Assembly: GCA_016182905.1 (NCBI GenBank)
Contig: JACPFR010000005.1
Coordinates: 76,185-140,184 of the forward strand
Length of the DNA stretch: 64,000 nt
Reading direction: 5' to 3'
DNA from: Elusimicrobiota bacterium
GTDB taxonomy: Bacteria > Elusimicrobiota > Elusimicrobia > UBA1565 > UBA9628
The position numbers and the translations under genes were made by a program. Shown in pieces: positions 3,823 through 27,693 of the stretch. Below the pieces are notes generated by a model. It made no database searches and had not been told where the DNA came from. It worked only from the letters and a program-made list of their open reading frames with translations. Every line of letters begins with the position of its first letter. Position 1 is the first letter of the stretch.

Positions 3823-6800
3823 ATGAACAGCGAACGGATTCGCCGCCTGGCGGTTCGGACAGCGCTCGGGTTGTCGCTCGTCGCGGCATCCTGGACCGGC
3901 TTCGTCCGTCCTCCGTTCGCCAGGGCCGCCTCCGTCTGCACCGTCGTGAAGCTCGAGCTGGAGCAGAAGGCCGCGCTCGAGCGCGAGGCGTTCAACGCGC
4001 ACCTCGTCCTGACGAACAACCAGGCGGACACGCCGCTGTCGAGCCTGCGCGTGACGATAAGCATCAAGGACTCGCTCGGCAACCCGGCCGACGCCCTCTT
4101 CTTCAATAAGGTGACGGACATCGCCGGCGTCTCCGCCGTCGACGGGACCGGCACGATGCAGCCGGCCGCCGTGGCGGACATCCGCTGGCTCATCATCCCG
4201 TCGCCGGGGGCGGGCGGCTCGCAGTACGACGGCACCCAGTACCAGGTCACGGCCCAGATCTCCTACGTCTCGGGAGAGACTCCCGGCCTGAACCCCACGC
4301 AGCCCGCGTACATCACGGTCTACCCGCAGCCGCTGCTGAGCCTGGAATACCTGATGCCCTTCGAGGTGTTCGGCGTCGATCCCTTCACCTTGACCGGCTC
4401 GACCGAGCCCTTCCCGCTCGGGCTGCGCGTGTCGAACGTGGGCGCCGGCACGGCGGTCAACTTCCAGATCGACTCCGCCCAGCCCGGTATCACGGACAAC
4501 AAGCAGGGCCTGCCGATCTCGTTCCAGATCGTCGGGGCGTTCCTGAACTCCAGCCCCCTGCCGGCCAACACCTTGACCGTCCCGTTCGGGAACATCCCGC
4601 CCGGCGGAAGCTCGCTCGCCTCCTGGCAGATGACCTCTTCCTTCTCCGGCCGCTTCACGGACTTCACCGTCACGGCCACCCACGACGCCTCGCTCGGCGG
4701 CGCCCTGACGTCGCTGATCCAGAGCGTGACGACCTACACCTTGATCAAGGACGTGCTCGACGACCAGCCCGGGCGCGACGCGCAGTACGACCTGCTGGTG
4801 AACGTGGGCACGCCGCGCAGCCGGATGGAGTCGGACTATCAGTCGGGCCTGGAACCCAAGCCGGACGCCCTCATCGACTCGGACCGCCCCGGCTTCACGC
4901 CGGTGCGCAACGTCCCCGCGCACCTGGGCGGGGGATTGTCCGGGTCAAACGGCGTCCTGAACGTCGTCTTCGATCAAGCGGTGCCGACCGGCACCTGGGT
5001 CCATACCTCGATCCCGTTCCCTCAGGGCGACTCGGTGCCGCTGACGTCCGTCAGCCGCTCCGACGGCAAACCCATCAACCCGCGCAACGCTTGGATCGCC
5101 AAGCACATCGACAAGCTGACGAACACCCGCACCTATTTCCTCCATCTGCTCGACTTCACGTCGTCGGAGCCGGTCGGCTACGCCATGACGTTCAACGCCG
5201 CGTCCTTGATCGTCCCGCCCGACCCGATCTCGAATTTGAGCGCGCTGGCGTCCGGACCTGGAGCTTTGTCCTTGAGTTGGAACGCGACGGGGGCGGAGGG
5301 CTCAAGCGGCACCATCGTGGGCGGACGCTACGCGATTTTCGCCTCGACCGATCCGTCCGCGGTCCCCGGCGTCGCGGGCGCCGCTGTGAGCTTCTCGACC
5401 GTGACGCAGGCCCTGGCCGGGCAGGACTACCTGCTCTCGGGCCTGCTCGGCAACGCCACCTATCAAATCGCGGTCTTCCTGGCCAACGCCGCCGGGCAGT
5501 TCTCCTCGGTCTCCAATATGGTCGTCGTTCAGACGTTGGCCAATCCGCCGACGGCCGTCCAGGTCACGTCAATCACGGCGTCCGGGTTCGCCTTGAGTTG
5601 GACCACTTCAGCCAACGGCGCCGGGACCGAGTATCAGGTCGCGCTTTCCAGCGGCGAGCAAACGGCCTTCACGGCCGATCAGTCCTCCGCCGTCTTCTCG
5701 GGCCTCAACGCCAATCAGACCTATTCCGTGACCTCGGTTGAGCGCAACGGCGCCCAGGCCCTCACGCCGGCCGTCGTCATCGCCGGCGTGACCACGTTGG
5801 CCCTCCCGCCGGCCACGACTTCGCCGGCCTTTGTGAGCATCACGACAGACTCGGCGCAGGCGCAATGGCTCCTCGACGGCAACCCGACCGATACGGAGTT
5901 CTTCAGCGAGCTTTCCACTTCCGCGTCCCGCGCGCCCGTCTTCGCCGCGAGCGGCTGGGTGCGCGCGCACGACTTCACCTTCGCGGGCCTACCCTCGGGG
6001 ACCACCTTCTACGGCCAGGTCAAGGCCCGCAACCGGGCCTTGACCGAGACGGCCTACGCCGATTTGGGCGCGATGCGGACCGCGCCCGTGGACAATCTGC
6101 CGCCGCTCACGTCGTTGGCGGTGGGCTTGCCGCAGTTTGGCGCGTCGCCGGTCTATATCGCCACCGGCACGATACTGAGCCTGTCCGCCGTGGATGACAA
6201 GGCCGTGGAAGGCGACGGCATAGGGCTGGGTGTGGCGCAAACGCTCTTCGCGATCGATTCCAGCAGCTTTACGGCCTACACCGGGACCTTCACGCTCGTC
6301 GCCCAAGGCACGCACACGATCCAGTTCTACAGCGTCGACGTGCTGGGCAACGCGGAGATCGCGCGCAGCGCTTTGGTCGCCGTGGCCGCGCCGCCGGCCG
6401 CCGTCGTCGATCTCGCCCTTGCCGCCGTCCACCCGTCCTCCGTCACGTTGCGCTGGACCGAGCCGGTCGGGGCCATACCTCAAGTCTCTTACGACTTGAG
6501 GCGCGCCACCTTCCCCATTACAACGGACAACTTCGACGCGGCGACGGCGATTCCGGCGCCCGCTCCGGCCTCGTCGGGCACCGTCTTGTCGATCGACGTC
6601 GCCGGCGTCACGGAACCCGGGTTCTACGCGGCGCTCGTGAGCCGGAACGCCCTCGGAGGCGTTTCGCCTCTGAGCAACGTGGCGGGGCTCATCCGCAGCA
6701 CGGTGACCGTGAACGGCTACCCGGAATTGGCGTTCTCGGCCAATCAATCCGTCACCGCGACGTTGCTCTCGCCGGCGGAGGGCAAAGGCGCCGTCGCGTT

Positions 6801-9800
6801 CGCGAGCGCGGCGCCCGTCGGGCTGATCTTGGTGAGTTCGATCTACGACCTGGGACCCGAGGGCGCCGTCTTTAATCCGTACGCGGCGCTGACCCTCCGC
6901 TACTCAGCCGCGACGCTCGCAGCCCTCGGCTTGGTCCCGAGCGATCTGGCGATCTATCAGTACGTCGCGGGCTCGGGCTGGGTGGCGGTCTCGGCCCAAA
7001 CGCTCAGCGTGGACGATCAGAACGTCATCGCGACCATACCCAGCCTCGCCTCGATCTTCGCCTTGCTCGGCAAGTCGCACGTGCCGCCGACCTTGGCGCT
7101 CACGCCGATCAATGGAAGCACGGTCACGACCCCGACGCCTCGAATCACCGCCGTTTATTCAGCAATCGGCCCCGGCGTCGCCCCCGCCACGGTGCGCCTG
7201 ACGCTCGACGGCGCGGACGCGACCGCGTCGGCGGTCGTGACCGCCTCCGAAGCGAGCTTCACGCCCGATGCGGCGCTCGCCCAGGGCAGCCACACGGTGA
7301 CGGCCGCGGTCGCCGACTACGCGGGCAACGTCGCGACGGCGAGTTCGACGTTCTTCCTCGACAGCGTCCCGCCGGAGACGACGTTGGTCGTCGGAGACCC
7401 TCTGTTCAGCTCGACGACGCTTTTCGTGACCGCCGCGACCCCGCTGGGCTTGACCGCCTCCGAGCCCGCGAGGACCTTCTACGCCGTGGGTTCAAGCACT
7501 TTCGCGGCTTACTCCGGGACCTTCACGCTCGTGGCCCTGGGCACTTACACCGTGCAGTTCTACAGCGTCGACCTGGCGGGCAACGTGGAGGCCACGCGCA
7601 GCGCGCAAGCGGCCGTGGACGGCCTGCCGCCGCGCACCGCCGCCGCTTTCGGGGAGCCGAAGTTCGCGGGGGACCGGCTCTACGTGAGTTCCACGACGCC
7701 GATCGAGTTCTCCGCGGCCGACGACCTGGCCTCCCTGGGCGACGGGAGCGGGGCGGGGGCGGCGCAAACGCTTCTGTCCGTCGATTCGGCCGCTTTCGCG
7801 GCAGCCGTCTCCGCGATCAGCCTGTCGTCCGAAGGCGAGCACGCCTTGAGCTGGTACAGCCGCGACTTGCTCGGCAACTCCGAGATTCCCGTGAGCACCT
7901 CGATCGTCGTGGACTTGACGCCTCCTCTCACCCAGCTTCTGATCTCCTCGCCGTCCATTACGCAGGCCTCGGGCACGGTGGTCGGACCGGCGACCATCCT
8001 GAGCCTTTCCGCCCAGGACCCGGTCTCGGGCGGCGTGGCCTCGGGCGTCAAGGACACGTTCCTCTCCGTTTCGACGAACGTCTTCGCGCCGGCCCCGGTC
8101 ACCTTCACCCTCTTCGGCGCGGATGGCCCGCGTACCGTTTCCTTCTACAGCCGCGACAACGTCCTCAACGCCGAGCCGCTCGCGAGCGCGACCGTCCTGC
8201 TCGACGCGACGCCGCCGGTCAGCGCCGCGACGATCGCTGTACCGCTTTATGTCGCCGCGGACGGCACGCGGTACGTCACCCCGGCCACGCCGATCTCCTT
8301 CTCGGCCCAGGACGCGGCCGTCGACGGGGTCGCATCCGGCGTGGGTCGCATCGAGGTCAGCGTGGACGGCGCGGCCTTCGCCGTTTACGCGGCCGGCTTG
8401 ACCTTCGCCGAAGGTCGGCACGTCGTGCGCTACCGAGCCGTGGACAACGTCGGCAACGTGGAGGCGGAACGCGAGCTCCTGCTCCGCTCGGACGCGACGC
8501 CCCCGCTCACGGTGTTCGCGCCTAGCGGGACGTTCTTCACCGCGGCCGACGGCGCGCGTTTCGCCCCGCTGAGCTTCTCTTATTCGCTCCCGGCCGCGGA
8601 CCCGGTCGTGGGCGACGTCGCCTCGGGCCTGGCCTTCACGCGCTACGCGCTCGATTCCGGGTCCTTCCAGGCCTACGCGACGACGTTCACTTTGACCGAG
8701 GGCGTGCGGCGCGTGGACTTCCAGAGCGAGGACAACCTGGGGCATCTCGAACTGCTTCAGAGCGCTACGGTCTTCGTGGACGCCGCGGCGCCTCTCACGG
8801 CGCTCGCCATCGGCGCTCCTCAGTTCATCTCCAGCGGCACCGTGTACGTGAGCACGGCGACGCCGTTCTCCTTGAACTCGCAAGACCCGACGGTCGCGGG
8901 GACCGCCTCGGGCGTGTCCGGGATTTCCTTCCGGCTTGACGCCGCCGCGTTCGGGCCTTATCTGTCCGTCTTCACGCTCCCCGCGCCGGACGGCCTGAGG
9001 AACGTGGCGTGGTCCGCCGCGGACAACGTGGGCAACGTCGAGGCGGAGAAGACCTCAAGCGTGGCGCTCGACGCCACCGCTCCGCAGAGTTCGCTGGTCG
9101 TCGTCGGCGGCCGCCAGGTCGCCGGTCCCGATGCCGCGAGCTTCTATGCCTCCTCGGACACTCGCGTGGCCTTCATGTCCTTCGATCCTGTAACGAGCGG
9201 AGTAGCGTCAGGCCTGGCCGCGGTCCGCTACCAGGATAACGGCGGGGCGTTCCAGAACTTCGCGGCTCCGCCGGCCCTGGGCGAGGGTCGGCACGCGCTG
9301 GGTTATCAGGCCCAGGATAACGTCCTAAACCTGGAGGTCCTGCGCTCGACGACCGTGCTGGTGGATGCGACGCCGCCGGTGACCGCGATTTCCATGGGTG
9401 CCCCGACCTTCACGGCCGCGGACGGGACGGTCTACGTCGCCCCGGCGTCGTCGATCTCCTTCTCCGCCGCCGATCCATCCCTGCCGTCGGGCGAGCCCGG
9501 CTCGGGGGCGGAGCGCGTCGAGGTCTCCGTCGACGCAGGCGTCTACGCCGCCTTCAACGCCCCGCTCACCTTCTCCGAGGGCCTCCACACGGTCCGCTAC
9601 CGGGCCTTGGACCGGGTGGGCAACGTGTCGGCGGAGCGCACGCTGGAGCTGCGGTCGGACGCCACGCCTCCGGCGAGCGAGCTGGCGATCGGCGAGCCGA
9701 GTTTCTCGCTTTCCAGCGCGACCGTCCTGGTCAGCTCGATGACGCCGTTGTCCATCGCGGCGCAGGACCCGACGGTCAACGCGGTCGCCTCAGGGGTGAA

Positions 9801-12111
9801 GGAGACGTTCTACCGTTTCGTCGACGTAATGCCTAGCACGGCTCCCTTCCTGGTTTACACGGCTTCATTCACATTCACGGGCGCCGATGGGGCCGGTACG
9901 GTCGAGTTCTACTCGCGCGATCAGGTGCTCAACACGGAGCCGGTGCGCTCCCGCGCGCTGCTGCTGGACTCCACGCGTCCCGTGGCCGTCATCGACTCGC
10001 CGCACGGCGGGCAGGGCATCTGCTCGGTGGTCAAGGGGATCATCCCGGTGCGGGGCACGGCGCGGGACCTGCATTTCGCGAGTTATCTCCTTGAGTCCGC
10101 TCCGGGACGCGACGCCGCCGCCGGCTTCGTGGCGGCGAGCTCCGGGACGGCCGCGGTGGACGCGGGCCTATTGGGGACCTGGGACGCTCGGTCGTTGTCG
10201 GGCTGGCAGACCTTGCGGCTGACCGTCTTGGATCAGGTGCGCAACGCCTCCGTCGCGACCCTCAGCGTCTTCGTGGGCGACCCCGGGCGGCTGCTGGTGT
10301 TGGGAAGTCACGAGACCTTCAACATGCCCCAGGGCGTGGCGGCCGGCGCGGACGGCCGGATCTACGTCGCCGAGACCAACGACGACCAAGTCCAGGTCTT
10401 CTCCGCCACCGGGACTGCGTTGGTTTCCTTCGGGCGCGGCCACGGGCGAGACAATGACGAGGACGCGGGCCTGCGGCTGAACAAGCCCAAGAGCGTGGCG
10501 GTGGATGCCGCGGGAGCCATATTCATAGCCGATACCCACAACGACCGGATCTTGAAACTCTCCGCCACGGGACAGGTGCTGCTCGAGGTAGGACGGCGCA
10601 AGCCCGGAAGGAAGGACGACGACAAAGACGGCAAGGACAAGGGGAAGAACGAATCTCAGGAGTTCCAGTCGGGGAAGGGGCCGGGAGAGTTCCGCAAGCC
10701 CTCAGGCGTCGCGGTCGACGGCGAGGGGAACATCTTCGTCGCGGACACCGACAACAACCGGGTCCAGAAGCTGGGGCCTGACGGTGCTCCTCTGCTCGCC
10801 TTCGACCTGCCCCCCGCCTCGGGCGATGGCGAGGACGAGGACCGCGACTGCGAGAGGCCCGAGCTCGGGCGTCCCGTCGGCATCGCCCTGGACGGCGCGG
10901 GCAACATCTACGTCGCCGACCCGCGCGGCGCGCGGGCGCTCAAGTTCAGCCCGGCCGGACAACTCCTAATGACTTTGCCCATCCATTCGGAGGGCGAGGG
11001 GGGCCGCGGCAAGCCCGGCCGTCCCGAGGGGGTCGCGGTCTCGCCGGACGGCAGCTGCGTGCTGGTCTCGGACCAAAGGTCCTCGCGCGTGATCAAGTTC
11101 GACGCGGCGGGCGTCCAGACGCTGGCGTTCGGGGAGCCGGGCAAGATCAAGGACAACAAGCCCCTGCCCAAGCGGCTGGTCCTGCGCAAGCCCGCGGGCT
11201 TGGCCCTGGACGCCGGCGGCAAACTCTACGTGGCCGACCGCAACAACGACCGCATCCAGGTGTTCGGGCTTTCGACCGGCGAACCTGCGCTGGTGGTCCC
11301 GCCGCCCGCGCATGACCACAACGACGAACATGTCGCCCGGGAGGTGGTGGACAGGGAGGAGGGCGGCAGCGTGGAGCGCGACGACCAGGCCGGGGTGAAC
11401 ATCCCGGCCGGAGCTTTGGCCGAGGACCTCAAGATCACCGTGTCCACGCCTTCCGTCTCCGTTGAGGGCGACCGGGACCGGAACAGGGATGAGCAGAACC
11501 TCAAGGTCGTCTCGGCGCCGGTCGAGTACGGCCCCGAAGGGACGAAATTCAAGGAGCCGGTGACCTTGATCCTGCCGTACACTCCCGACCTGATCGCCGC
11601 TCAGGGGGTCGCCGAGGACAGCCTCAAGATCCACTACTGGAACAAGGGAAAGGGCGAGTGGGAGGCCCTGGAGTCGGAGGTGGACAAGAAGAACGGCACC
11701 ATCAAGGCGAAGACCCCGCACTTCTCGCTCTACCAGGTCCTGGGCTCGACGGGACCCGGGACCGCCGCCGCCCCCCTGGCGGCCGACGCCTCCTTCGGCT
11801 TCAAGGACCTGTACGCATTCCCCAATCCCGTGCGTGGGCAGGGGCCGGTCACGATCCGCATCCAGCCGGGCCTGGCCGACTCAATCACAGTGAGGGTCTA
11901 CGACGTGTCGGGCCGTAAGGTCCACGAGTCGTCGAACTTCGTAAACCGCGGCGCCTTCGACGACGGGAACGGGAAAGGCCCGCAGTACACCTATGACCAC
12001 ATCTGGGATGTCTCCGGCGTCGGCTCGGGGGTCTACACCTTCGTCGTGACCGCGACCAAGAGCGGCGAACGGGACATCCATAAGACGGGGAAGGTCGGCC
12101 TCATAAAATGA
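3823..12111 (+). CDS. giant cell-surface protein: signal peptide, N-terminal domain, 3 FN3-like domains, more than 10 Ig-like repeats, 6 NHL repeats, T9SS-type C-terminal sorting domain
   Basis: 2762-aa ORF. FN3-like segments (LSLSWNATG.., FALSWTTSANGAGTEYQV..). Repeated roughly 95-aa units ending in Y-S-x-D-x-x-G-N-x-E (FYSVDVLGNAE, FYSVDLAGNVE, YRAVDNVGNVE ...). Six NHL repeats (IYVAETNDDQVQVF; IFIADTHNDRILKL; IFVADTDNNRVQKL; IYVADPRGARALKF; VLVSDQRSSRVIKF; LYVADRNNDRIQVF). C-terminus FPNPVRGQGPVTIRI...ITVRVYDVSGRKVHE...SGVYTFVVTATKSGERDIHKTGKVGLIK fits the T9SS CTD pattern (TIGR04183-like). Confidence 0.85.
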   Translation: MNSERIRRLAVRTALGLSLVAASWTGFVRPPFARAASVCTVVKLELEQKAALEREAFNAHLVLTNNQADTPLSSLRVTISIKDSLGNPADALFFNKVTDIAGVSAVDGTGTMQPAAVADIRWLIIPSPGAGGSQYDGTQYQVTAQISYVSGETPGLNPTQPAYITVYPQPLLSLEYLMPFEVFGVDPFTLTGSTEPFPLGLRVSNVGAGTAVNFQIDSAQPGITDNKQGLPISFQIVGAFLNSSPLPANTLTVPFGNIPPGGSSLASWQMTSSFSGRFTDFTVTATHDASLGGALTSLIQSVTTYTLIKDVLDDQPGRDAQYDLLVNVGTPRSRMESDYQSGLEPKPDALIDSDRPGFTPVRNVPAHLGGGLSGSNGVLNVVFDQAVPTGTWVHTSIPFPQGDSVPLTSVSRSDGKPINPRNAWIAKHIDKLTNTRTYFLHLLDFTSSEPVGYAMTFNAASLIVPPDPISNLSALASGPGALSLSWNATGAEGSSGTIVGGRYAIFASTDPSAVPGVAGAAVSFSTVTQALAGQDYLLSGLLGNATYQIAVFLANAAGQFSSVSNMVVVQTLANPPTAVQVTSITASGFALSWTTSANGAGTEYQVALSSGEQTAFTADQSSAVFSGLNANQTYSVTSVERNGAQALTPAVVIAGVTTLALPPATTSPAFVSITTDSAQAQWLLDGNPTDTEFFSELSTSASRAPVFAASGWVRAHDFTFAGLPSGTTFYGQVKARNRALTETAYADLGAMRTAPVDNLPPLTSLAVGLPQFGASPVYIATGTILSLSAVDDKAVEGDGIGLGVAQTLFAIDSSSFTAYTGTFTLVAQGTHTIQFYSVDVLGNAEIARSALVAVAAPPAAVVDLALAAVHPSSVTLRWTEPVGAIPQVSYDLRRATFPITTDNFDAATAIPAPAPASSGTVLSIDVAGVTEPGFYAALVSRNALGGVSPLSNVAGLIRSTVTVNGYPELAFSANQSVTATLLSPAEGKGAVAFASAAPVGLILVSSIYDLGPEGAVFNPYAALTLRYSAATLAALGLVPSDLAIYQYVAGSGWVAVSAQTLSVDDQNVIATIPSLASIFALLGKSHVPPTLALTPINGSTVTTPTPRITAVYSAIGPGVAPATVRLTLDGADATASAVVTASEASFTPDAALAQGSHTVTAAVADYAGNVATASSTFFLDSVPPETTLVVGDPLFSSTTLFVTAATPLGLTASEPARTFYAVGSSTFAAYSGTFTLVALGTYTVQFYSVDLAGNVEATRSAQAAVDGLPPRTAAAFGEPKFAGDRLYVSSTTPIEFSAADDLASLGDGSGAGAAQTLLSVDSAAFAAAVSAISLSSEGEHALSWYSRDLLGNSEIPVSTSIVVDLTPPLTQLLISSPSITQASGTVVGPATILSLSAQDPVSGGVASGVKDTFLSVSTNVFAPAPVTFTLFGADGPRTVSFYSRDNVLNAEPLASATVLLDATPPVSAATIAVPLYVAADGTRYVTPATPISFSAQDAAVDGVASGVGRIEVSVDGAAFAVYAAGLTFAEGRHVVRYRAVDNVGNVEAERELLLRSDATPPLTVFAPSGTFFTAADGARFAPLSFSYSLPAADPVVGDVASGLAFTRYALDSGSFQAYATTFTLTEGVRRVDFQSEDNLGHLELLQSATVFVDAAAPLTALAIGAPQFISSGTVYVSTATPFSLNSQDPTVAGTASGVSGISFRLDAAAFGPYLSVFTLPAPDGLRNVAWSAADNVGNVEAEKTSSVALDATAPQSSLVVVGGRQVAGPDAASFYASSDTRVAFMSFDPVTSGVASGLAAVRYQDNGGAFQNFAAPPALGEGRHALGYQAQDNVLNLEVLRSTTVLVDATPPVTAISMGAPTFTAADGTVYVAPASSISFSAADPSLPSGEPGSGAERVEVSVDAGVYAAFNAPLTFSEGLHTVRYRALDRVGNVSAERTLELRSDATPPASELAIGEPSFSLSSATVLVSSMTPLSIAAQDPTVNAVASGVKETFYRFVDVMPSTAPFLVYTASFTFTGADGAGTVEFYSRDQVLNTEPVRSRALLLDSTRPVAVIDSPHGGQGICSVVKGIIPVRGTARDLHFASYLLESAPGRDAAAGFVAASSGTAAVDAGLLGTWDARSLSGWQTLRLTVLDQVRNASVATLSVFVGDPGRLLVLGSHETFNMPQGVAAGADGRIYVAETNDDQVQVFSATGTALVSFGRGHGRDNDEDAGLRLNKPKSVAVDAAGAIFIADTHNDRILKLSATGQVLLEVGRRKPGRKDDDKDGKDKGKNESQEFQSGKGPGEFRKPSGVAVDGEGNIFVADTDNNRVQKLGPDGAPLLAFDLPPASGDGEDEDRDCERPELGRPVGIALDGAGNIYVADPRGARALKFSPAGQLLMTLPIHSEGEGGRGKPGRPEGVAVSPDGSCVLVSDQRSSRVIKFDAAGVQTLAFGEPGKIKDNKPLPKRLVLRKPAGLALDAGGKLYVADRNNDRIQVFGLSTGEPALVVPPPAHDHNDEHVAREVVDREEGGSVERDDQAGVNIPAGALAEDLKITVSTPSVSVEGDRDRNRDEQNLKVVSAPVEYGPEGTKFKEPVTLILPYTPDLIAAQGVAEDSLKIHYWNKGKGEWEALESEVDKKNGTIKAKTPHFSLYQVLGSTGPGTAAAPLAADASFGFKDLYAFPNPVRGQGPVTIRIQPGLADSITVRVYDVSGRKVHESSNFVNRGAFDDGNGKGPQYTYDHIWDVSGVGSGVYTFVVTATKSGERDIHKTGKVGLIK
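6100..10270 (+). repeat. tandem in-frame array of about 11-13 Ig-like domain repeats inside the giant surface-protein gene
   Basis: Protein-level periodicity of about 95 aa with recurring P-P-x-T..., SGV(A/K), and (F/Y)YS(V/R)D(x)(L/V)GN(x)E motifs. DNA-level identity between units appears low (diverged repeats). Confidence 0.7.
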
Positions 12112-12998
12112 GAGCACTCAAGGTCGCCGGACTGATCGTCCTCTCCGCCCAGGTCTCCTGGGCCGCGGAGACCGCGTCGTTTCTCGACATCGGCGTGGGC
12201 GGACGCGCGCTGGGCATGGGCGGCGCCTACACGGCCCTGGCCGACGACGCGAACGCCCTCTACTGGAACCCCGCGGGCTTGGCGCGCCTGGAGAAGCGCG
12301 AGGCGACGGCGAGCCATGCCGAGCTGTTCGAGAGCACGCGGCTCGACTTCCTGGCGTACGCGAATCCCACGACGCAGGGCGTCCTCTCGGCGGGGCTCAC
12401 CTACCTGAGCCAGCCTAAGATTCCGGGGCGCGACAGCCTTGGACGCCCGACGGGAGGATATGACGCCTCGGACGCCGCCGTGAGCCTCGGCTTCGCCCGC
12501 AAGCTCGACATGGCCGATTTCGGCGTCTCCGTGAAGTACGTCCGCAGCCACATCGGCTCCGTCGAGGCGCAGACCGTCGCCGTGGACGTGGGCGCCAAAC
12601 GAGCGCTGGGAAGCCTGGTGTTCGGCGCAGCGTTTCGCAACCTGGGGCCTGGGCTCAAGTACGACAACGAGCGCAACGACCTGCCCCTCAGGCTCGCCGT
12701 CGGCGCCGCCTACAAGTTCGCAGGAGGGCACGCGGCCGCAGTCGAGGCCGTCAACGGCCCGCGCGGCGCGGGAACGGACGGCTCCTTCGGCGGGGAGTTC
12801 CAGGCGCTCAAGAACGTCTATCTTCGTGCCGGCTACACCACCCAAAGCGCCGTCACCGGCGGCGCAGGCTTCGACGCGGCGCGCGGGTTGACCTTCGGCC
12901 TCGGCATGCGCAACGAGAAGTGGAGCATGGACTACGCGATCCTCCCGACCGGCGAGCTCGGGCGATCTCACCGGTTCAGCCTTGGTGCTCGATTTTAG
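12108..12998 (+). CDS. outer-membrane beta-barrel of the FadL/PorV-like group (possible T9SS PorV/PorQ or PorP/SprF-type partner)
   Basis: Signal peptide (LIVLSAQVSWAAETA). N-terminal motif GGRALGMGGAYTALADDANALYWNPAGLA matches the FadL/PorV-type start. Abundant alternating aromatic-rich strands and a C-terminal F. Start overlaps the stop of the CTD-bearing giant gene. Confidence 0.6.
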   Translation: MRALKVAGLIVLSAQVSWAAETASFLDIGVGGRALGMGGAYTALADDANALYWNPAGLARLEKREATASHAELFESTRLDFLAYANPTTQGVLSAGLTYLSQPKIPGRDSLGRPTGGYDASDAAVSLGFARKLDMADFGVSVKYVRSHIGSVEAQTVAVDVGAKRALGSLVFGAAFRNLGPGLKYDNERNDLPLRLAVGAAYKFAGGHAAAVEAVNGPRGAGTDGSFGGEFQALKNVYLRAGYTTQSAVTGGAGFDAARGLTFGLGMRNEKWSMDYAILPTGELGRSHRFSLGARF

Positions 12999-13150: not shown

Positions 13151-13789
13151 TTAGGCTCGTCGTTCCGCGTCGATGAAGTATGAGCGAACGCCCGCCGAAA
13201 CGGCGACGGCCATCACCAGACAGCCGATGACCTGGACGGCCGCGCCCAAGCCCACGTCGTGGGTGAGCAGGCCCGCGGTCTCAAGCAGGTAGGTCCAGTC
13301 GTGGACGCCGCCGGCCACGAGGTCCAACTGCTGAGCTCTCGCGTCCGCGACGTAGTGCCCGATGCCGAGAAAGTTCTGCCCGAGCCAGAACAGCGCGACG
13401 CAGGCGGAGAGCCTCTCCCCGCGCTTAAGGAAGTGGAGCATTGCCGCCCCGGGCAGGAGCAGCTGCATCAAGGTCCCGCCCGCGACCATGATGAAGCGCG
13501 CGCCCAACAGGCCGAAGACGACGTGGCCGCCCTCGTGGAAGGCCAAGTTCACGAAGTCCGGCAGCCAGAACGCGCGCATGAGCCACTGCCTGGCCGGGAC
13601 CATGACAGCGAAAAACAGGACGGCGCCGGCGATATAGGGCGGCGTCCAGAACGTCAGCGCGGCGGCATCGGCCGACTGTGAGGCGGCCATCGGCCTCGCG
13701 GACTGCGGCTTCTTGCTCAGCATCTCTGAGCAGACCTGGCAAAACAAGGCGTCGGCGGCATTGTCGTTCCGACAGGACGGGCAGTTCAT
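13151..13789 (-). CDS. zinc-ribbon membrane protein with HExxH motif (putative small membrane metallopeptidase, S2P/M50-like)
   Basis: N-terminal CPSC...CQVC zinc ribbon. Multiple TM segments. FHEGGHVVFG (HExxH inside a helix) plus downstream LDLVAGG/DW reminiscent of the S2P LDG motif. Confidence 0.45.
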   Translation of the reverse strand: MNCPSCRNDNAADALFCQVCSEMLSKKPQSARPMAASQSADAAALTFWTPPYIAGAVLFFAVMVPARQWLMRAFWLPDFVNLAFHEGGHVVFGLLGARFIMVAGGTLMQLLLPGAAMLHFLKRGERLSACVALFWLGQNFLGIGHYVADARAQQLDLVAGGVHDWTYLLETAGLLTHDVGLGAAVQVIGCLVMAVAVSAGVRSYFIDAERRA

Positions 13790-14025
13790 GTTCAGGAGAG
13801 CATGGCGTGTCCGGCGCTTCTTGTCAAGATGGCCGGACTTGGTGAGTTTGCGAACTTTGACGCCCTCGGGCCGCCCTCTCCGACGAGGATTAGGGCTAGA
13901 CCTGAGCGGTTGTCAGGCGGAGGCCTTTCACCTCACAGAAATAGCGACTGTGATCGTCGGGAAGTGAGAATTCGCATAGCCATCCTGAATGTCATTGAGT
14001 AACCCATAAAGCGGGCGTATTATTT

Positions 14026-14101
14026 AAAAATAGGCCTTTAAACATTATAGACTTGAAAAAATAGGCCTCTTCTGTTATATTAGAGTTAGATTATAGGCCT
14101 C
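14026..14101 (+). repeat. three direct copies of A-rich ATAGGCCT motif at about 30-bp spacing upstream of fic
   Basis: aaaaATAGGCCTtta / aaaaaATAGGCCTctt / attATAGGCCTcc within an AT-rich low-GC intergenic stretch directly 5' of the Fic gene. Confidence 0.6.
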
Positions 14102-14132
14102 CAAGTCATTCTCAGGCTCATAAGAGTGAAAA

Positions 14133-15605
14133 ATGACGCCCTTATCAGAACTCATCTTTGGGACATCAGAAAACAAGGAGGCCAAGCGCCTGCGCCGCTT
14201 ATTGCGTGCAGGACAGGCTAGAAAGATTGCGCCACGCCTATACACAACCAATCTTACGGACCTGCCCGAGAAGATAGTCCGAGATAACTACCACGAAATC
14301 CTTGGGAGGCTTTTTCCCAAAGCAGTCATCAGCCATCGGACCGCGCTGGAAGGAAAGCCTACAGCAAGCTGGGAAGTATTTCTTACCAGCTCTTATCCCC
14401 GAAAAGTCGTATTGCCGGGCCTTACAGTCAGAATCATGAAGGGTCCGCCCGCTGGAATTGCGGACAAGCCCTTCATGGTGGGGGACCTCTTCCTCGCATC
14501 GGAACCACGAGCATTCCTCGAGAACCTCCAGCCAAGTCGCCGAGGAGCGACCACGTCAAAGGCCATTTCCCGTCAAGAGCTAGAAGAACGTCTTGAAAGA
14601 ACCCTTCGCCTAAGGGGCGAGAAAGCCCTAAACAATCTACGTGATGAAGCTCGGCGCGTCGCTAACGAATCCGGCTTCCTCGAAGAGTTTAAGTCGCTGG
14701 ATGCGATCATCGGGGCAATGCTCAAGACAAAACCGGCTTCTGGACTGCAATCAGCATTGGCCAAGGCACGGGCAGCAGGAGAGGCGTTCGATCCGGAGCG
14801 GCTAAGAGTATTCGAGGCTCTTTTCTCTGCCCTAAAACAAACTCCGCTACGAGAGACTGCTGAGGCGCATACAAATTCAGAAGCTTTGCGAGTGCTCGCC
14901 TTCTTCGAGTCCTACTTTTCAAATTATATTGAAGGGACAAAATTCGAAGTTGATCAGGCGCATGAGATCGTATTTGAAGGGAGGATCCCAATCACGCGTC
15001 CAAAGGATGCGCATGATGTCTTAGGAACTTATCGAGTTGTCTCGAACATCGCAGGGCTGAGTGAACGGCCTCAAGCCATGGATTCGTTTTGGACGCTGCT
15101 CTCAACTCGCCATGAAGCTATGCTCGGCGCCAGGCCAGAAATTCGGCCAGGCGAGATGAAGATGGACGTCAACCGCGCCGGGGACACGGTATTTGTCGTG
15201 CCAGATCTCGTAAGAGGGACGCTGGCAAGAGGCCTTGAGTTTTATAAGGTCCTGGATTCTCCATCGGCTCGGGCGGCGTTCATGATGTTTCTGGTTTCCG
15301 AGGTTCACCCTTTTAACGATGGCAACGGCCGTATTGCTCGCGTGATGATGAATGCCGAGCTGGTCGCGGCAGGTTTACGACGGATCATCATCCCAACAGT
15401 ATTTCGCGACGATTACCTCGGCGCGCTTCGAGCTCTTAGCCGGAGAGGCGATCCTGGCGCTTATCTGCGCATGTTTGATTACGCCCAGTTATTTTCAGCA
15501 AGCATCGATTTCTCCGACTTTCCAACTGCGCGGCGGGCATTGGAAGCGGCGAACGCTTTCAAAGACCCCGGAGAAGCGAAGCTCGTCATCCGAAAGAGCG
15601 AGTAA
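14133..15605 (+). CDS. fic: Fic/Doc family protein (class II Fic with cis inhibitory motif), adenylyltransferase-type toxin-like
   Basis: Canonical Fic motif HPFNDGNGRIARVMMN. Upstream inhibitory-helix motif S-x-x-x-E-G (FSNYIEGT). Gene GC (about 50%) is far below the flanking sequence (about 70%). Confidence 0.85.
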   Translation: MTPLSELIFGTSENKEAKRLRRLLRAGQARKIAPRLYTTNLTDLPEKIVRDNYHEILGRLFPKAVISHRTALEGKPTASWEVFLTSSYPRKVVLPGLTVRIMKGPPAGIADKPFMVGDLFLASEPRAFLENLQPSRRGATTSKAISRQELEERLERTLRLRGEKALNNLRDEARRVANESGFLEEFKSLDAIIGAMLKTKPASGLQSALAKARAAGEAFDPERLRVFEALFSALKQTPLRETAEAHTNSEALRVLAFFESYFSNYIEGTKFEVDQAHEIVFEGRIPITRPKDAHDVLGTYRVVSNIAGLSERPQAMDSFWTLLSTRHEAMLGARPEIRPGEMKMDVNRAGDTVFVVPDLVRGTLARGLEFYKVLDSPSARAAFMMFLVSEVHPFNDGNGRIARVMMNAELVAAGLRRIIIPTVFRDDYLGALRALSRRGDPGAYLRMFDYAQLFSASIDFSDFPTARRALEAANAFKDPGEAKLVIRKSE

Positions 15606-15721
15606 GAGGAGTTTCCGTCTCTGGGACTAGTGCCTGAACTGCCGCTGATCCAGAGCCGGAGGTTGTCGCCGATCCGGCACCCGCACCAAAATCCTTGTCG
15701 AGATGCGTGTCGAGATGACGC

Positions 15722-15768
15722 CAAAAACCAACAAAAAACCGCAAACTCGAACAAACTCAAGTTTGCGG
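15722..15768 (-). terminator. rho-independent terminator (minus strand)
   Basis: Minus-strand sequence CCGCAAACTtgagtttgttcgAGTTTGCGG followed by TTTTTTGTTGGTTTTT. Confidence 0.7.
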
Positions 15769-15895
15769 TAATTGTCGATTTCTCGACGAGAACTCGATTC
15801 TGACAGCGGAACTGCTTCCTGCGCCGGGGGCACCCGTCAGTTTTACAGACCGGTGCTTTTGACCGCTCAGCCACCCTACCATTGCGGCTGCGACA
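15722..15895 (-). ncRNA. candidate small RNA with tRNA-like 5' domain (or decayed tRNA remnant) bounded by a promoter-like element and an intrinsic terminator
   Basis: Minus strand GGTAGGGTGGCTGAGCGGTCAAAAGCACCGGTCTGTAAAACTGACGGGTGCCCCCGG resembles the acceptor, D-arm and anticodon arm of class-II tRNAs (D-loop GAGCGGTCAAA, anticodon loop CTGTAAA, hairpin variable arm). No canonical T-arm or 3' acceptor strand follows. TTGCGG-N17-CATAAT lies upstream and the terminator lies downstream. Confidence 0.3.
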
Positions 15896-15928
15896 GGGCA
15901 TTATGGCATTTCAGGGTCGCAGCCGCAA
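15882..15928. repeat. perfect 13-bp inverted repeat (hairpin) immediately downstream of htpX
   Basis: TTGCGGCTGCGAC - 21 nt - GTCGCAGCCGCAA. Confidence 0.8.
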
Positions 15929-15948
15929 CGGTATCAATAAACGGCGGT

Positions 15949-16815
15949 CTAGGCCCTGCGCAGGGCCGCGATGCGGTCCGCCAGCGGCGGATGCGTCGAG
16001 ATCAGCGCCAGGAAGCCGCCGCGCCCGCCGGCGATCTTGAGCGTCGCCAGCGCCTCCTGCGTGTCGTGGGGCTCGAAGCGGCGCTGCAGGGCCTGCAGGG
16101 CGGCGATCATCTTCTCGCGGCCGCCGAGCTTGGCGCTGCCGGCGTCGGCGCGGAACTCCCGGTGGCGGGAGAACCAGGCGACGACGACCATGCCCAGTAT
16201 TCCGAGAGCGATCTCGAGCGCGAACACCGTCAGGCGGTCCATCCCCCGGTGGTCGCGGTCGGAGCCGCGGCTCAGCGCGAAGGCGATGACCCGGGCCAGG
16301 AACATGACGAAGGCGTTGACCACGCCCTGGATCAAGGTCATCGTGACCATGTCGCCGTTGGCGACGTGGGCGATCTCGTGGGCGAGCACGCCCTCGAGCT
16401 CGTCCTGGCTCATGCTCTCGAGCAGGCCGGTCGAGACGGCGACCAGCGCGCGGGACTTCGTCGGGCCCGTGGCGAAGGCGTTGGGCTCGGGGCTGTCGTA
16501 GATCCCGACCTCGGGCATCGCCGGCAGGCCCGCGCGGCGCGCGAGGCCGTGGACGGTCCCGACCAGCGGGTGGCCGGAGCGCGCGTCGAGGACCTTGACT
16601 CCCATGCTCCACTTGGCCATCACGCGCGACAGGGACAGCGAGACGAAGGCGCCGCCCATGCCCCACGCGAGGCAGAACGCGGCGAGCGAGCCGTAGTCGA
16701 TGCCCCTCGCGCTCAGGTACGGTCCCACGCCCAGCACCGACAGCAGGACGGAGATGGTGAGGACCACCAGCAGGTTCACGGCCATGAATAGGAACACGCG
16801 TTTCATCCAGGTCAT
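15949..16815 (-). CDS. htpX: protease HtpX (M48 family zinc metalloprotease)
   Basis: HEIAHV zinc motif, TM segments, and the overall HtpX pattern (GLPAMPEVGIYDSPEPNAFATG; LAHEIAHVANGDM). Confidence 0.9.
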   Translation of the reverse strand: MTWMKRVFLFMAVNLLVVLTISVLLSVLGVGPYLSARGIDYGSLAAFCLAWGMGGAFVSLSLSRVMAKWSMGVKVLDARSGHPLVGTVHGLARRAGLPAMPEVGIYDSPEPNAFATGPTKSRALVAVSTGLLESMSQDELEGVLAHEIAHVANGDMVTMTLIQGVVNAFVMFLARVIAFALSRGSDRDHRGMDRLTVFALEIALGILGMVVVAWFSRHREFRADAGSAKLGGREKMIAALQALQRRFEPHDTQEALATLKIAGGRGGFLALISTHPPLADRIAALRRA

Positions 16816-26678: not shown

Positions 26679-27693
26679 TGTCGTAGAAGCCGAAGGCGAG
26701 CGCGATCGCGAGCGGGCCGATGAACAGGCCGGCGATCCCGAAGGCCTTCAGCGCCCCGATCACCGCGACGAACACCAGCGGGATCGGGAGCTTCGTCTGG
26801 GCGCCGAGGAGGATGGGGCGCACGACGTTGTCCGACAGGCTCACGACGAGCACGAACCAGAGGGCGAGCGCCGCCGCCTTCGCCGCGGCCCCCTGGAGCG
26901 CCGTATAGGCCACGACCGGCACCCAGATCACCGCGGAGCCGACGAAGGGGATCGGCGAGAGCAGGACGCAGGCGGAGCCGAGGAGGAAGGCGAAAGGCAC
27001 CCCGAACAGCGCGAAGCCCGCCCAGGCGAGCGTTCCCTGGAGAAGGGCGACCGCGAATATGCCGTTGGCGACGGCGAGCAGGACGCCGCGGATCCGCGTC
27101 AGCAGCCGGGCCTTGTCCGCCTCCGGGAGCGGGATCAGCTCGCTGGCGCGGCGGACGACGTCCTCCCCGTCGCGCAGGAACAGGAACAGCGCCGCGGCGA
27201 ACACGGCGAAGTTGAGGAAGACGACCGCCGCGTTCTTGGCCAAGGCCCGCGCCGCGCCGCCCGCCCAGGCGCCGACCTGGTCGAGGTTCTCGAGCACGGC
27301 CTGACGCGGCTTGAGGTTCAGCGCCGCGGCCAGGTCGCGGCCCGTCGCGACGACGCCCGCGAGCCTCTGCGGCGGCTTCCAGCCGGCCCCGCCGTTCTCC
27401 GACAGCACGGCCAGCCGGTAGCGGGCCGCCGGATAGGCCTCCTCGGCCTCGCGCAGGAGGGCCCAGCCGCCGAAGAAGAACGGCACGGCCCCGGTCAGGC
27501 ACACCAGCGCCGTCAGCGCGGCGGCCGCCGCCCCGGGACGGCGCGGCGCGCGGCCCGCGCAGGACTTGTGCAGGGGGGCGAGGACGAGCGCGACCGAGGC
27601 GGCTGCGAGCAGCGCGCCGAGGAACGGGGCGAAGAGGCGCGCCGCGAGCAGGGCCAGCAGCAGGCCGGCGACGGCGAGGAAGCGGGTCTCCAT
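26653..27693 (-). CDS. AI-2E family transporter (PerM/UPF0118)
   Basis: 8-TM protein with a C-terminal conserved block (PIPFVGSAVIWVPV ... LVVSLSDNVVRPILLG ... HPLVFVAVIGALKAFGIAGLFIGP). Confidence 0.75.

Follow-up and report, generated by a model that had tools for sequence, protein, structure and literature searches.

How did a Fic gene come to lie in a segment of low guanine-plus-cytosine (GC) content between high-GC genes of an Elusimicrobiota bacterium, beside what looks like a piece of a tRNA gene, and what keeps its product in check? We analyzed the 64,000-nucleotide stretch in which the gene lies (assembly GCA_016182905.1, contig JACPFR010000005.1, positions 76,185 to 140,184 of the forward strand; this whole stretch is called the window here). 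An earlier note on this DNA had suggested the horizontal acquisition of a Fic toxin module, possibly by integration at a tRNA gene that has since decayed. According to our preferred reading, which we hold to be fairly probable, the locus is a mobile, self-repressing and auto-inhibited single-gene module resembling a Fic toxin, located at a broken tRNA-Tyr gene. The element in question is made up as follows.

14002 to 15839, plus strand: transferred cassette (promoter with repeat boxes, fic, and a 3′ region with a terminator), 91% identical in DNA to a contig of another sample.
14133 to 15605, plus strand: fic gene, 490 amino acids (Pfam Fic; AlphaFold2 model).

The GC content is 0.43 to 0.56 over approximately 13850 to 15950, compared with 0.65 to 0.77 on both sides, and the reading frame at 14133 to 15605 on the plus strand is the sole long one of this segment. 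The fic gene has a GC content of 0.536 and a GC content at third codon positions (GC3) of 0.544; the GC3 of four neighboring genes ranges from 0.875 to 0.972. A low-GC Fic segment between high-GC genes, as described in the earlier note, is thus borne out. The cassette was found again in a Logan contig from another sample (L009), with 91% DNA identity from window position 14002 to the contig end at 15870; left of 14002, that contig carries an unrelated histidine kinase/response regulator gene with a GC content of approximately 0.57. Homologs with 70 to 80% protein identity occur in five further unrelated contexts and retain the promoter and boxes. DNA homology to these loci reaches from the −35 element to the stop codon, and the moving unit therefore consists of the promoter, the boxes and the gene. 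The GC3 gap, the 91% copy in a 57%-GC context and the unrelated contexts of the homologs strongly support a horizontal acquisition of the cassette at 14002 to 15839, as judged from sequence comparison; the absence of a Fic gene from this site in relatives (see below) fits the same proposal of the earlier note. That fic has instead long been resident and owes its atypical composition to functional reasons appears very improbable. In high-GC genomes, coding sequence normally exceeds intergenic and tRNA regions in GC content, and a drop in GC as such would suit a resident gene. However, a GC3 of 0.54 versus approximately 0.9 in the neighbors is beyond explanation by protein function, relatives lack the gene at this site, and a nearly identical copy is present in another host, in other surroundings. 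The resident-gene explanation is therefore already contradicted.

The catalytic part of the encoded protein could be assigned from two motifs, both of which are invariant in 62 homologs.

14919 to 14936, plus strand: inhibitory motif SNYIEG, amino acids 263 to 268, including Glu267.
15306 to 15332, plus strand: catalytic motif HPFNDGNGR, amino acids 392 to 400.

Pfam PF02661 (Fic) matched amino acids 332 to 409 with 39.4 bits (cutoff, 24), and the full HxFx(D/E)GNGRxxR motif reads HPFNDGNGRIAR (amino acids 392 to 403). SNYIEG lies on the same chain, at the end of a helix (249 to 266) that precedes the Fic core, and aligns with the IEG of Caenorhabditis elegans Fic-1. The Fic family match and the two motifs confirm the fic gene with HPFNDGNGR and a cis-acting SxxxEG helix that had been read from the sequence before. 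The AlphaFold2 model of the 490 amino acids had a mean predicted local distance difference test (pLDDT) score of 93.5, and residues from approximately 240 to 490 matched FICD, Fic-1, BT_2513 and SoFic as the top PDB folds (Foldseek E value of 2e-9 for FICD; probability of 1.0 for BT_2513, SoFic and CdFic). By these motifs and this model, the protein is classified as a class II, cis-inhibited Fic protein with predicted AMP-transferase activity. It shares the HPFx(D/E)GNGRxxR motif, the (S/T)xxxE(G/N) cis helix and the fold with the class II proteins FICD/HYPE, Fic-1, BT_2513 and SoFic, to which it adds an N-terminal extension of approximately 240 amino acids (an AbiEi-like domain and a helical linker); FICD has tetratricopeptide repeats and SoFic a domain of the winged helix-turn-helix type (wHTH) at its C terminus in place of this extension. 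More than 6,900 proteins with approximately 50% identity over the full 490 amino acids were matched in many phyla (Elusimicrobiota, Bacteroidota, Proteobacteria, Verrucomicrobiota and Actinomycetota), some of them on viral contigs. The PADLOC model for SoFic (PDLC03963) matched with an E value of 1.6e-14, over amino acids 242 to 440 only, and a full-length match of SoFic-type architecture was not obtained (16 bits with the NCBIfam SoFic equivalog, for which the cutoff is 550). The protein thus has the single-gene Fic organization and the core match in common with the SoFic antiphage system, and a defense role would be putative here; it differs by its AbiEi-like N terminus and by the lack of a C-terminal wHTH domain.

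Next, the N-terminal part was analyzed. The earlier note had assumed a region of about 130 amino acids and of unknown function upstream of the inhibitory helix. The region is in fact about 250 to 260 amino acids long, and a check of its homology revealed that the first 135 or so are AbiEi-like.

14133 to 14537, plus strand: AbiEi-like N-terminal module, amino acids 1 to approximately 135 (Foldseek; PADLOC AbiEi models).
14571 to 14840, plus strand: helical linker or bundle, amino acids 147 to 236 (secondary structure of the model; no family assigned).

When the N-terminal 142 amino acids were modeled separately (pLDDT of 85.5), the best Foldseek match was AbiEi (6y8q_A), with an E value of 0.011, a probability of 0.95 and a template modeling (TM) score of 0.44, followed by nucleotidyltransferase folds. 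The same hit pattern, including the nucleotidyltransferase folds, has been reported for AbiEi itself (PMC7319586). The AbiEi models of PADLOC matched 25 of 27 family members (best E value, 8e-7), and every model that matched was an AbiEi model; the window protein was matched with an E value of 4e-4, over profile positions 24 to 90 or so only. The following weighs against counting the module as AbiEi. Searches of Pfam (including its AbiEi families), NCBIfam and PDB sequences found nothing for the N terminus, and the structural likeness is modest, as the TM score and E value given above indicate. The wHTH is incomplete: the model contains S(7-9)-H(14-25)-S(30-33)-S(36-38), and the AbiEi helices H1 and H2 are missing from it, whereas the complete AbiEi topology is H1-S1-H2-H3-S2-W-S3 (PMC3985639). 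Finally, the likeness to AbiEi begins only at the recognition helix. Because H1 and H2 are missing, we named the module AbiEi-like and did not assign it to the AbiEi family. What it has in common with AbiEi/Rv2827c (COG5340) is the top structural match, consistent weak matches to hidden Markov models, and repeats that overlap the gene's own promoter (PMC7319586, PMC3985639). AbiEi is encoded beside a DUF1814 nucleotidyltransferase toxin, whereas the window module is fused to Fic; no DUF1814 (AbiEii) toxin gene was found in the cassette or its flanks, and the partner here is the fused Fic domain. We found no description of an AbiEi-Fic fusion in the literature searched, the coverage of which was incomplete, so that this is weak evidence of novelty. 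In one lineage (L005 to L008, 7535/7568 to 8071/8197), a DUF6088/AbiEi_4 gene is located approximately 100 bp downstream of the Fic homolog; a free-standing AbiEi-type protein there adjoins a Fic protein that already carries an AbiEi-like domain. Alignment of the N-terminal module to the neighboring DUF6088 protein with hhalign covered only 26 columns at 45% probability.

The region upstream of fic contains a promoter into which short repeats, termed boxes, are embedded.

14024 to 14038, plus strand: box 0 (TTTAAAAATAGGCCT), an extra upstream copy present only in the window and L009, 31 bp upstream of box 1.
14053 to 14081, plus strand: sigma-70-type promoter TTGAAA-N17-TATATT, TG-extended and in agreement with the consensus at 10 of 12 positions.
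14055 to 14069, plus strand: box 1 (GAAAAAATAGGCCTC), within the 17-nucleotide promoter spacer, kept in L001, L003, L007, L009 and L010.
14091 to 14099, plus strand: box 2 (TTATAGGCC), just past the −10 element; 32 bp separate it from box 1, and close homologs have it at about −48 relative to the ATG.
14115 to 14123, plus strand: degenerate inverted box (AGGCTCATA) by the ribosome-binding site, possibly forming a 9-bp hairpin with box 2 in the 5′ untranslated region (UTR).

The sequence ATAGGCCT occurs at 14030, 14061 and 14093, i.e., with a spacing of 31 and 32 bp, and these are the three evenly spaced A-rich repeats that had been noticed before. Four copies are present in the window compared to 0.49 expected, and 1 of 100 shuffled sequences reached four. 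The fourth exact copy (27433 to 27440) is far from the cassette and probably due to chance. All close homologs have kept the promoter together with boxes 1 and 2, although they lie in different genomic contexts. Distant family members likewise carry two to four direct repeats upstream of the gene, with other sequences: ATTAACAAAAGTTTGCA in four copies in L184, TTATYCGAYAAAACTTCA in four copies in L105, AATGGAAAA-type boxes in L026 and L103, ATAAAATTTGT in L018, and AAAAGTC in L019 and L020. Shuffling of individual distant loci gave mixed results; this test was superseded by a pooled lag analysis, in which the best 12-mer self-match was determined at each offset from 12 to 60. For the discovery set (the window and nine distant loci), the sums were 89 at lag 31 and 82 at lag 32, compared to a maximum of 78 in 100 shuffles. 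In a validation set of eight independent loci fetched afterwards, the lag-31 sum was 79 (null maximum, 65). Thirty-seven Fic genes without this N terminus showed no peak, the mean best matches at the two lags being 6.65 and 6.95 versus 6.57 ± 0.26 overall. In most loci, the paired boxes lie at approximately −80 and −49 from the ATG. The direct-repeat spacing of 31 to 32 bp is a trait of the family, as found in 18 loci from many phyla, and the sequence of the boxes is lineage specific.

Position and spacing of the boxes are kept while their sequence shifts from lineage to lineage, and fic is the only gene that travels with them. The simplest explanation is therefore that the encoded protein recognizes the boxes and represses its own gene. 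The suggestion of the earlier note that a regulator might bind the repeats is strengthened by their joint transfer with the gene and by the family-wide spacing, both of which are observations at the sequence level. Against this reading, the similarity of boxes and proteins across lineages could reflect co-inheritance alone, and the pair formed by box 2 and the inverted box could instead function at the RNA level, as a hairpin. We regard it as unlikely that the boxes are something other than an operator for the Fic protein, i.e., duplicated promoter modules, sites for host factors, or an RNA element. In the RNA version, the 5′ UTR hairpin would control mRNA stability or translation. Under any of these alternatives, the N-terminal module would serve for something other than DNA binding, for example for target recognition or for regulation of the Fic domain. 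The additional upstream copy in the window resembles a duplicated promoter segment, the wHTH is truncated, and all six close homologs, for which a consensus structure was obtained, are predicted to form the 9-bp hairpin. However, its covariation is almost nil, and in distant lineages the third copy is direct, so the hairpin is not conserved. The spacing of 31 to 32 bp in 18 loci of many phyla with differing box sequences, its absence upstream of the 37 other Fic genes, and the exclusive co-travel of this fic gene with the boxes likewise favor an operator that is read by the Fic protein. Further upstream, a 25-nucleotide imperfect inverted repeat (13919 to 13943/14078 to 14102; 72% complementary) pairs GGAGGCCT at 13919 with box 2. 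The AGGCCT at this site is a fourth copy, 110 bp upstream of box 0, and could be a distal operator or a product of chance.

How would such a protein be controlled? In the mechanism that we propose, the AbiEi-like module would bind the ATAGGCCT boxes, which are set at intervals of three helical turns and overlap with the spacer of the promoter and with the regions of the transcription start and the ribosome-binding site, and this binding would repress transcription of the gene. Glu267 would keep the Fic active site off. The enzyme would be freed by a trigger, for example infection by a phage or a different stress able to move the inhibitory helix aside, and would then AMPylate a cellular target and cause growth arrest. 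In its effect, the cassette would be a module of the toxin-antitoxin kind, or one similar to abortive infection, made of a single polypeptide. The data show the foreign origin, the mobility of the cassette with its promoter and boxes, the truncation of the tRNA, the domains of the protein and the repeat spacing of 31 to 32 bp throughout the family; autorepression, the binding of DNA by the N-terminal module, toxicity, trigger and target are what we infer. There are precedents for the regulatory steps. AbiEi represses its own expression via repeats that overlap its promoter (PMC3985639, PMC7319586), Fic-HTH fusions were proposed to be autoregulatory in 2009 (PMC2686095), and the Fic protein CccR of Yersinia pseudotuberculosis autorepresses via its HTH domain and AMPylates FtsZ (PMC9755527). 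CccR combines a Fic AMPylase and a DNA-binding self-repressor in one chain, the DNA binding of the window protein being predicted, and its paired sites are widely spaced as well (10-bp repeats 26 bp apart; PMC9755527). The HTH of CccR, on the other hand, lies at the C terminus and shows no relation to AbiEi, the operator consists of an inverted repeat, and CccR is an effector of a type VI secretion system, whereas nothing in the window protein suggests secretion. The operator type weighs against the proposed mechanism: AbiEi uses 23-bp inverted repeats 3 or 13 bp apart, and the repeats found here are mainly direct and spaced by 31 to 32 bp.

A further explanation concerns the function of the enzyme and seems possible to us, if doubtful: the protein could be a regulatory AMPylase/de-AMPylase that acts on a specific client, similar to FICD or EfFic, and the gene could be an ordinary accessory gene without a role in toxicity or defense. 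In FICD and Fic-1, the equivalent glutamate switches between AMPylation and de-AMPylation. These two proteins are the best matches in both sequence and fold, and in most other genomes the GC content of the gene is near that of its flanks. In contrast, the gene moves as a single-gene cassette, is tRNA-associated and carries a module related to an antitoxin of abortive infection; moreover, three family members reside on IMG/VR viral contigs, and the core matches the SoFic defense model of PADLOC (E value, 1.6e-14). These points favor the toxin-like module, in which Glu267 would act as an off switch.

We then asked where the cassette had landed. The right end of the low-GC segment adjoins a tRNA gene fragment and htpX.

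15797 to 15839, minus strand: cassette sequence in place of the tRNA 3′ half, unrelated to the 3′ half of tRNA-Tyr.
15840 to 15880, minus strand: first 41 nucleotides of the native tRNA-Tyr(GTA) (acceptor 5′ strand, D arm, anticodon 5′ stem and loop), identical to intact genes.
15877 to 15933, minus strand: native hairpin in the interval that separates the htpX stop codon from the start of tRNA-Tyr (18-nucleotide arms, 94% complementary).
15949 to 16815, minus strand: htpX, the native right flank (NCBIfam HtpX, 355 bits; GC3, 0.972).

The 41-nucleotide part is identical to the intact tRNA-Tyr genes of five loci (L002, L003, L097, L098 and L099), after which the likeness breaks off abruptly. 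ARAGORN detected no tRNA in the window, and the Rfam tRNA match (15880 to 15801, minus strand) scored 20.6 bits, below the gathering score of 29. The hybrid sequence showed no cloverleaf folding (z = −0.14), whereas the tRNA-Tyr of relatives does fold (z = −2.47). An unusual but functional hybrid tRNA was ruled out by these three results. The 3′ half of tRNA-Tyr was not found anywhere in the window by mismatch search and local alignment; the best matches were chance hits of 11 to 16 nucleotides, one of them within fic. As read from these alignments, the fragment is a clean breakpoint after the anticodon loop and does not represent decay. Three relatives (L097, L098 and L099) are approximately 90% identical in DNA over htpX and the genes beyond and have an intact tRNA-Tyr directly after htpX, without a Fic gene there. 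Homology to these loci is unbroken from the htpX side to window position 15834 and then ends; hence, the tRNA 5′ part is native, and the sequence to the left of it is not. The comparison with related genomes for an empty site, as proposed in the earlier note, therefore favors acquisition. Of its further assumptions, the tRNA-like fragment downstream of the gene exists and the boundary does fall within a tRNA gene that is intact in relatives, but the fragment is an exactly truncated tRNA-Tyr, cleanly cut rather than decayed, and neither an integrase nor an att site accompanies it.

The surroundings do not fit a simple insertion. The methyltransferase, CorA and ETF genes that follow tRNA-Tyr in the relatives are missing from the window. 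In another group (L100 to L102), which is 88% identical on the htpX side, no tRNA follows htpX directly, and homology to the window ends at 15955; after htpX, these loci carry unknown genes of 193, 375, 153, 171 and more than 620 amino acids. From these comparisons, the tRNA site is a rearrangement hotspot and marks a synteny break. Integration at a tRNA gene is supported by the boundary and by the intact gene of the relatives, although several findings count against a simple insertion. No recombinase or integrase gene is present among the cassette or adjacent genes, and the window contains neither a flanking att direct repeat nor the tRNA 3′ half. The unoccupied, intact tRNA gene of the relatives defines the boundary on the right side only; synteny is broken at the tRNA, so that a simple insertion is not demonstrated, and the join of island, tRNA and htpX is known from the contig of the metagenome-assembled genome (MAG) alone. 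All three Logan contigs with the cassette (L009, L263 and L264) end at the same base, 15869/15870, inside the tRNA part. The assembly graph consequently branches there, which implies another copy of tRNA-Tyr in those samples; a second copy may be present in the same genome.

This last finding raises the question of an assembly artifact, in which the 41 nucleotides of tRNA would be a remnant of an earlier integration, carried along by the cassette, and the MAG contig would have been misjoined to the true tRNA-Tyr-htpX locus via this short repeat. The common contig end as a graph branch, the identical junction in L009, which stems from a different host, and the missing genes after tRNA-Tyr would all be compatible with a misjoin. 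However, a repeat of 41 nucleotides should be below the typical read length and the large k-mers of metagenome assemblers, the two flanks are alike in composition and have their homologs in the same lineage, and L100 to L102 show that the site after htpX is genuinely variable. We therefore judge an artifact to be quite unlikely and retain the reading of a cassette at a truncated native tRNA-Tyr.

With tRNA-targeted islands, the locus shares the atypical composition, a boundary that falls exactly within a tRNA gene at its anticodon-loop sublocation, the intact state of this gene in relatives, and the location of the island 3′ of the tRNA. In contrast to such islands, the cassette is only 1.8 kb long, contains a single gene, and lacks an integrase and an att repeat; the tRNA was not regenerated, and the site coincides with a synteny break. 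Proximity to tRNA genes was also seen elsewhere in the family: in 5 of approximately 25 loci, the Fic gene lies less than 700 bp from a tRNA gene, on the 3′ side of the latter (P of approximately 1e-4, a rough binomial estimate). In a Holosporaceae MAG (L020, 4525 to 6829), a family member is flanked by tRNA-Met at a distance of 349 bp upstream and by tRNA-Gln at 363 bp downstream.

The locus combines known kinds of elements, namely, Fic-HTH autoregulators, AbiE-type modules and tRNA-linked islands, and represents no new category. The gene is already annotated as encoding a Fic family protein; the AbiEi-like assignment and the 31-bp operator architecture appear to be undescribed. As a wider and more tentative proposal, the AbiEi-like-Fic proteins of approximately 490 amino acids might form a very large class of one-chain toxin-antitoxin or abortive-infection modules, in which a cut-down wHTH would read co-evolving repeats and gate Fic, and the cassette would spread to tRNA-proximal hotspots. 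The operator repeats would be exactly three helical turns apart, the antitoxin-derived domain would also gate the cis-inhibited AMPylase, and promoter, operator and gene would spread as a self-contained unit. Fic enzymes are widespread, yet only for a few from bacteria is it known what they do or how they are controlled; with this locus, a family with thousands of members gains a concrete model that can be tested. The boxes, two to four per gene and spaced by 31 to 32 bp, have a sequence that varies with the putative recognition helix and provide a natural specificity series for studying how a minimal winged helix recognizes DNA. Through this family, type IV antitoxins of the AbiE type become linked to Fic toxins. 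If the cassette does act as a single-gene module of abortive infection or addiction, catalogs of defense systems would gain a new architecture. For genome evolution, the locus is a clean example from a little-studied phylum, with a single-gene cassette placed exactly where a tRNA gene is broken at its anticodon loop.

Two further elements were located in the 3′ region of the cassette.

15697 to 15717, plus strand: tandem GTCGAGATG, two copies (15697 and 15709) with 12-bp spacing.
15728 to 15769, minus strand: intrinsic terminator, a 14-pair stem followed by TTTTTTGTTGG, identical in L009.

The direct GTCGAGATG repeats and the inverted copy TCTCGAC (at 15781) that the earlier note listed downstream of fic are both present, but the number of GTCGAGATG copies is not above chance, as 33 of 100 shuffles gave two or more. 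L009 has one exact copy and one with a single substitution. Across 1.77 Mb of fetched sequence, GTCGAGATG is rare (32 hits). The 12-mer TTGTCGAGATGC (window positions 15695 to 15706) also occurs 78 nucleotides from the intact tRNA-Tyr of L002 (approximately 824) and L003 (2838 to 2897), together with an inverted copy. The minus-strand terminator would be expected to keep transcription that arrives from the tRNA/htpX side out of the cassette. The hairpin at 15877 to 15933 is kept in relatives with compensatory changes (GCGGCTGCGAC/GTCGCAGCCGC versus GCGGCTACGAC/GTCGTAGCCGC) and is probably a terminator of htpX or a tRNA-processing element. Beyond it, the order htpX-TerC-carbonic anhydrase is kept in related Elusimicrobia.

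The left side of the cassette is bordered by the following.

13151 to 13789, minus strand: zinc-ribbon membrane protein gene, the native left flank (GC3, 0.892).
13842 to 14001, no strand assigned: 160-bp junction segment of unassigned provenance, with one further AGGCCT at 13921.

Homologs of the zinc-ribbon protein in related Elusimicrobia are 81 to 85% identical, and their DNA homology to the window stops at about 13836 to 13841. The junction segment is missing from these relatives and from L009 and was matched only in Logan contigs of the same genome; two independent Logan assemblies reproduce the left junction with 99.95% identity. An 18-nucleotide imperfect match between 13759 to 13776 and 15880 to 15897 was judged to be coincidental, with native sequence at both ends. 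No clean empty site could be identified from the left flank, where the neighbors of the zinc-ribbon gene vary among relatives. In one relative (L013, 1 to 6000), the position beside the zinc-ribbon gene that the Fic cassette occupies in the window holds an island, which encodes a large serine recombinase along with several small, unknown genes. Further to the left (3823 to 12998), a giant secreted adhesin-like protein of 2762 amino acids with repeated Ig-like modules and NHL repeats is encoded, followed by a PorV/UPF0164-like outer-membrane protein. These left-flank genes, together with the zinc-ribbon gene, are syntenic with another region of the relatives, and the pair of giant secreted and PorV-like proteins shows partial synteny in L013.

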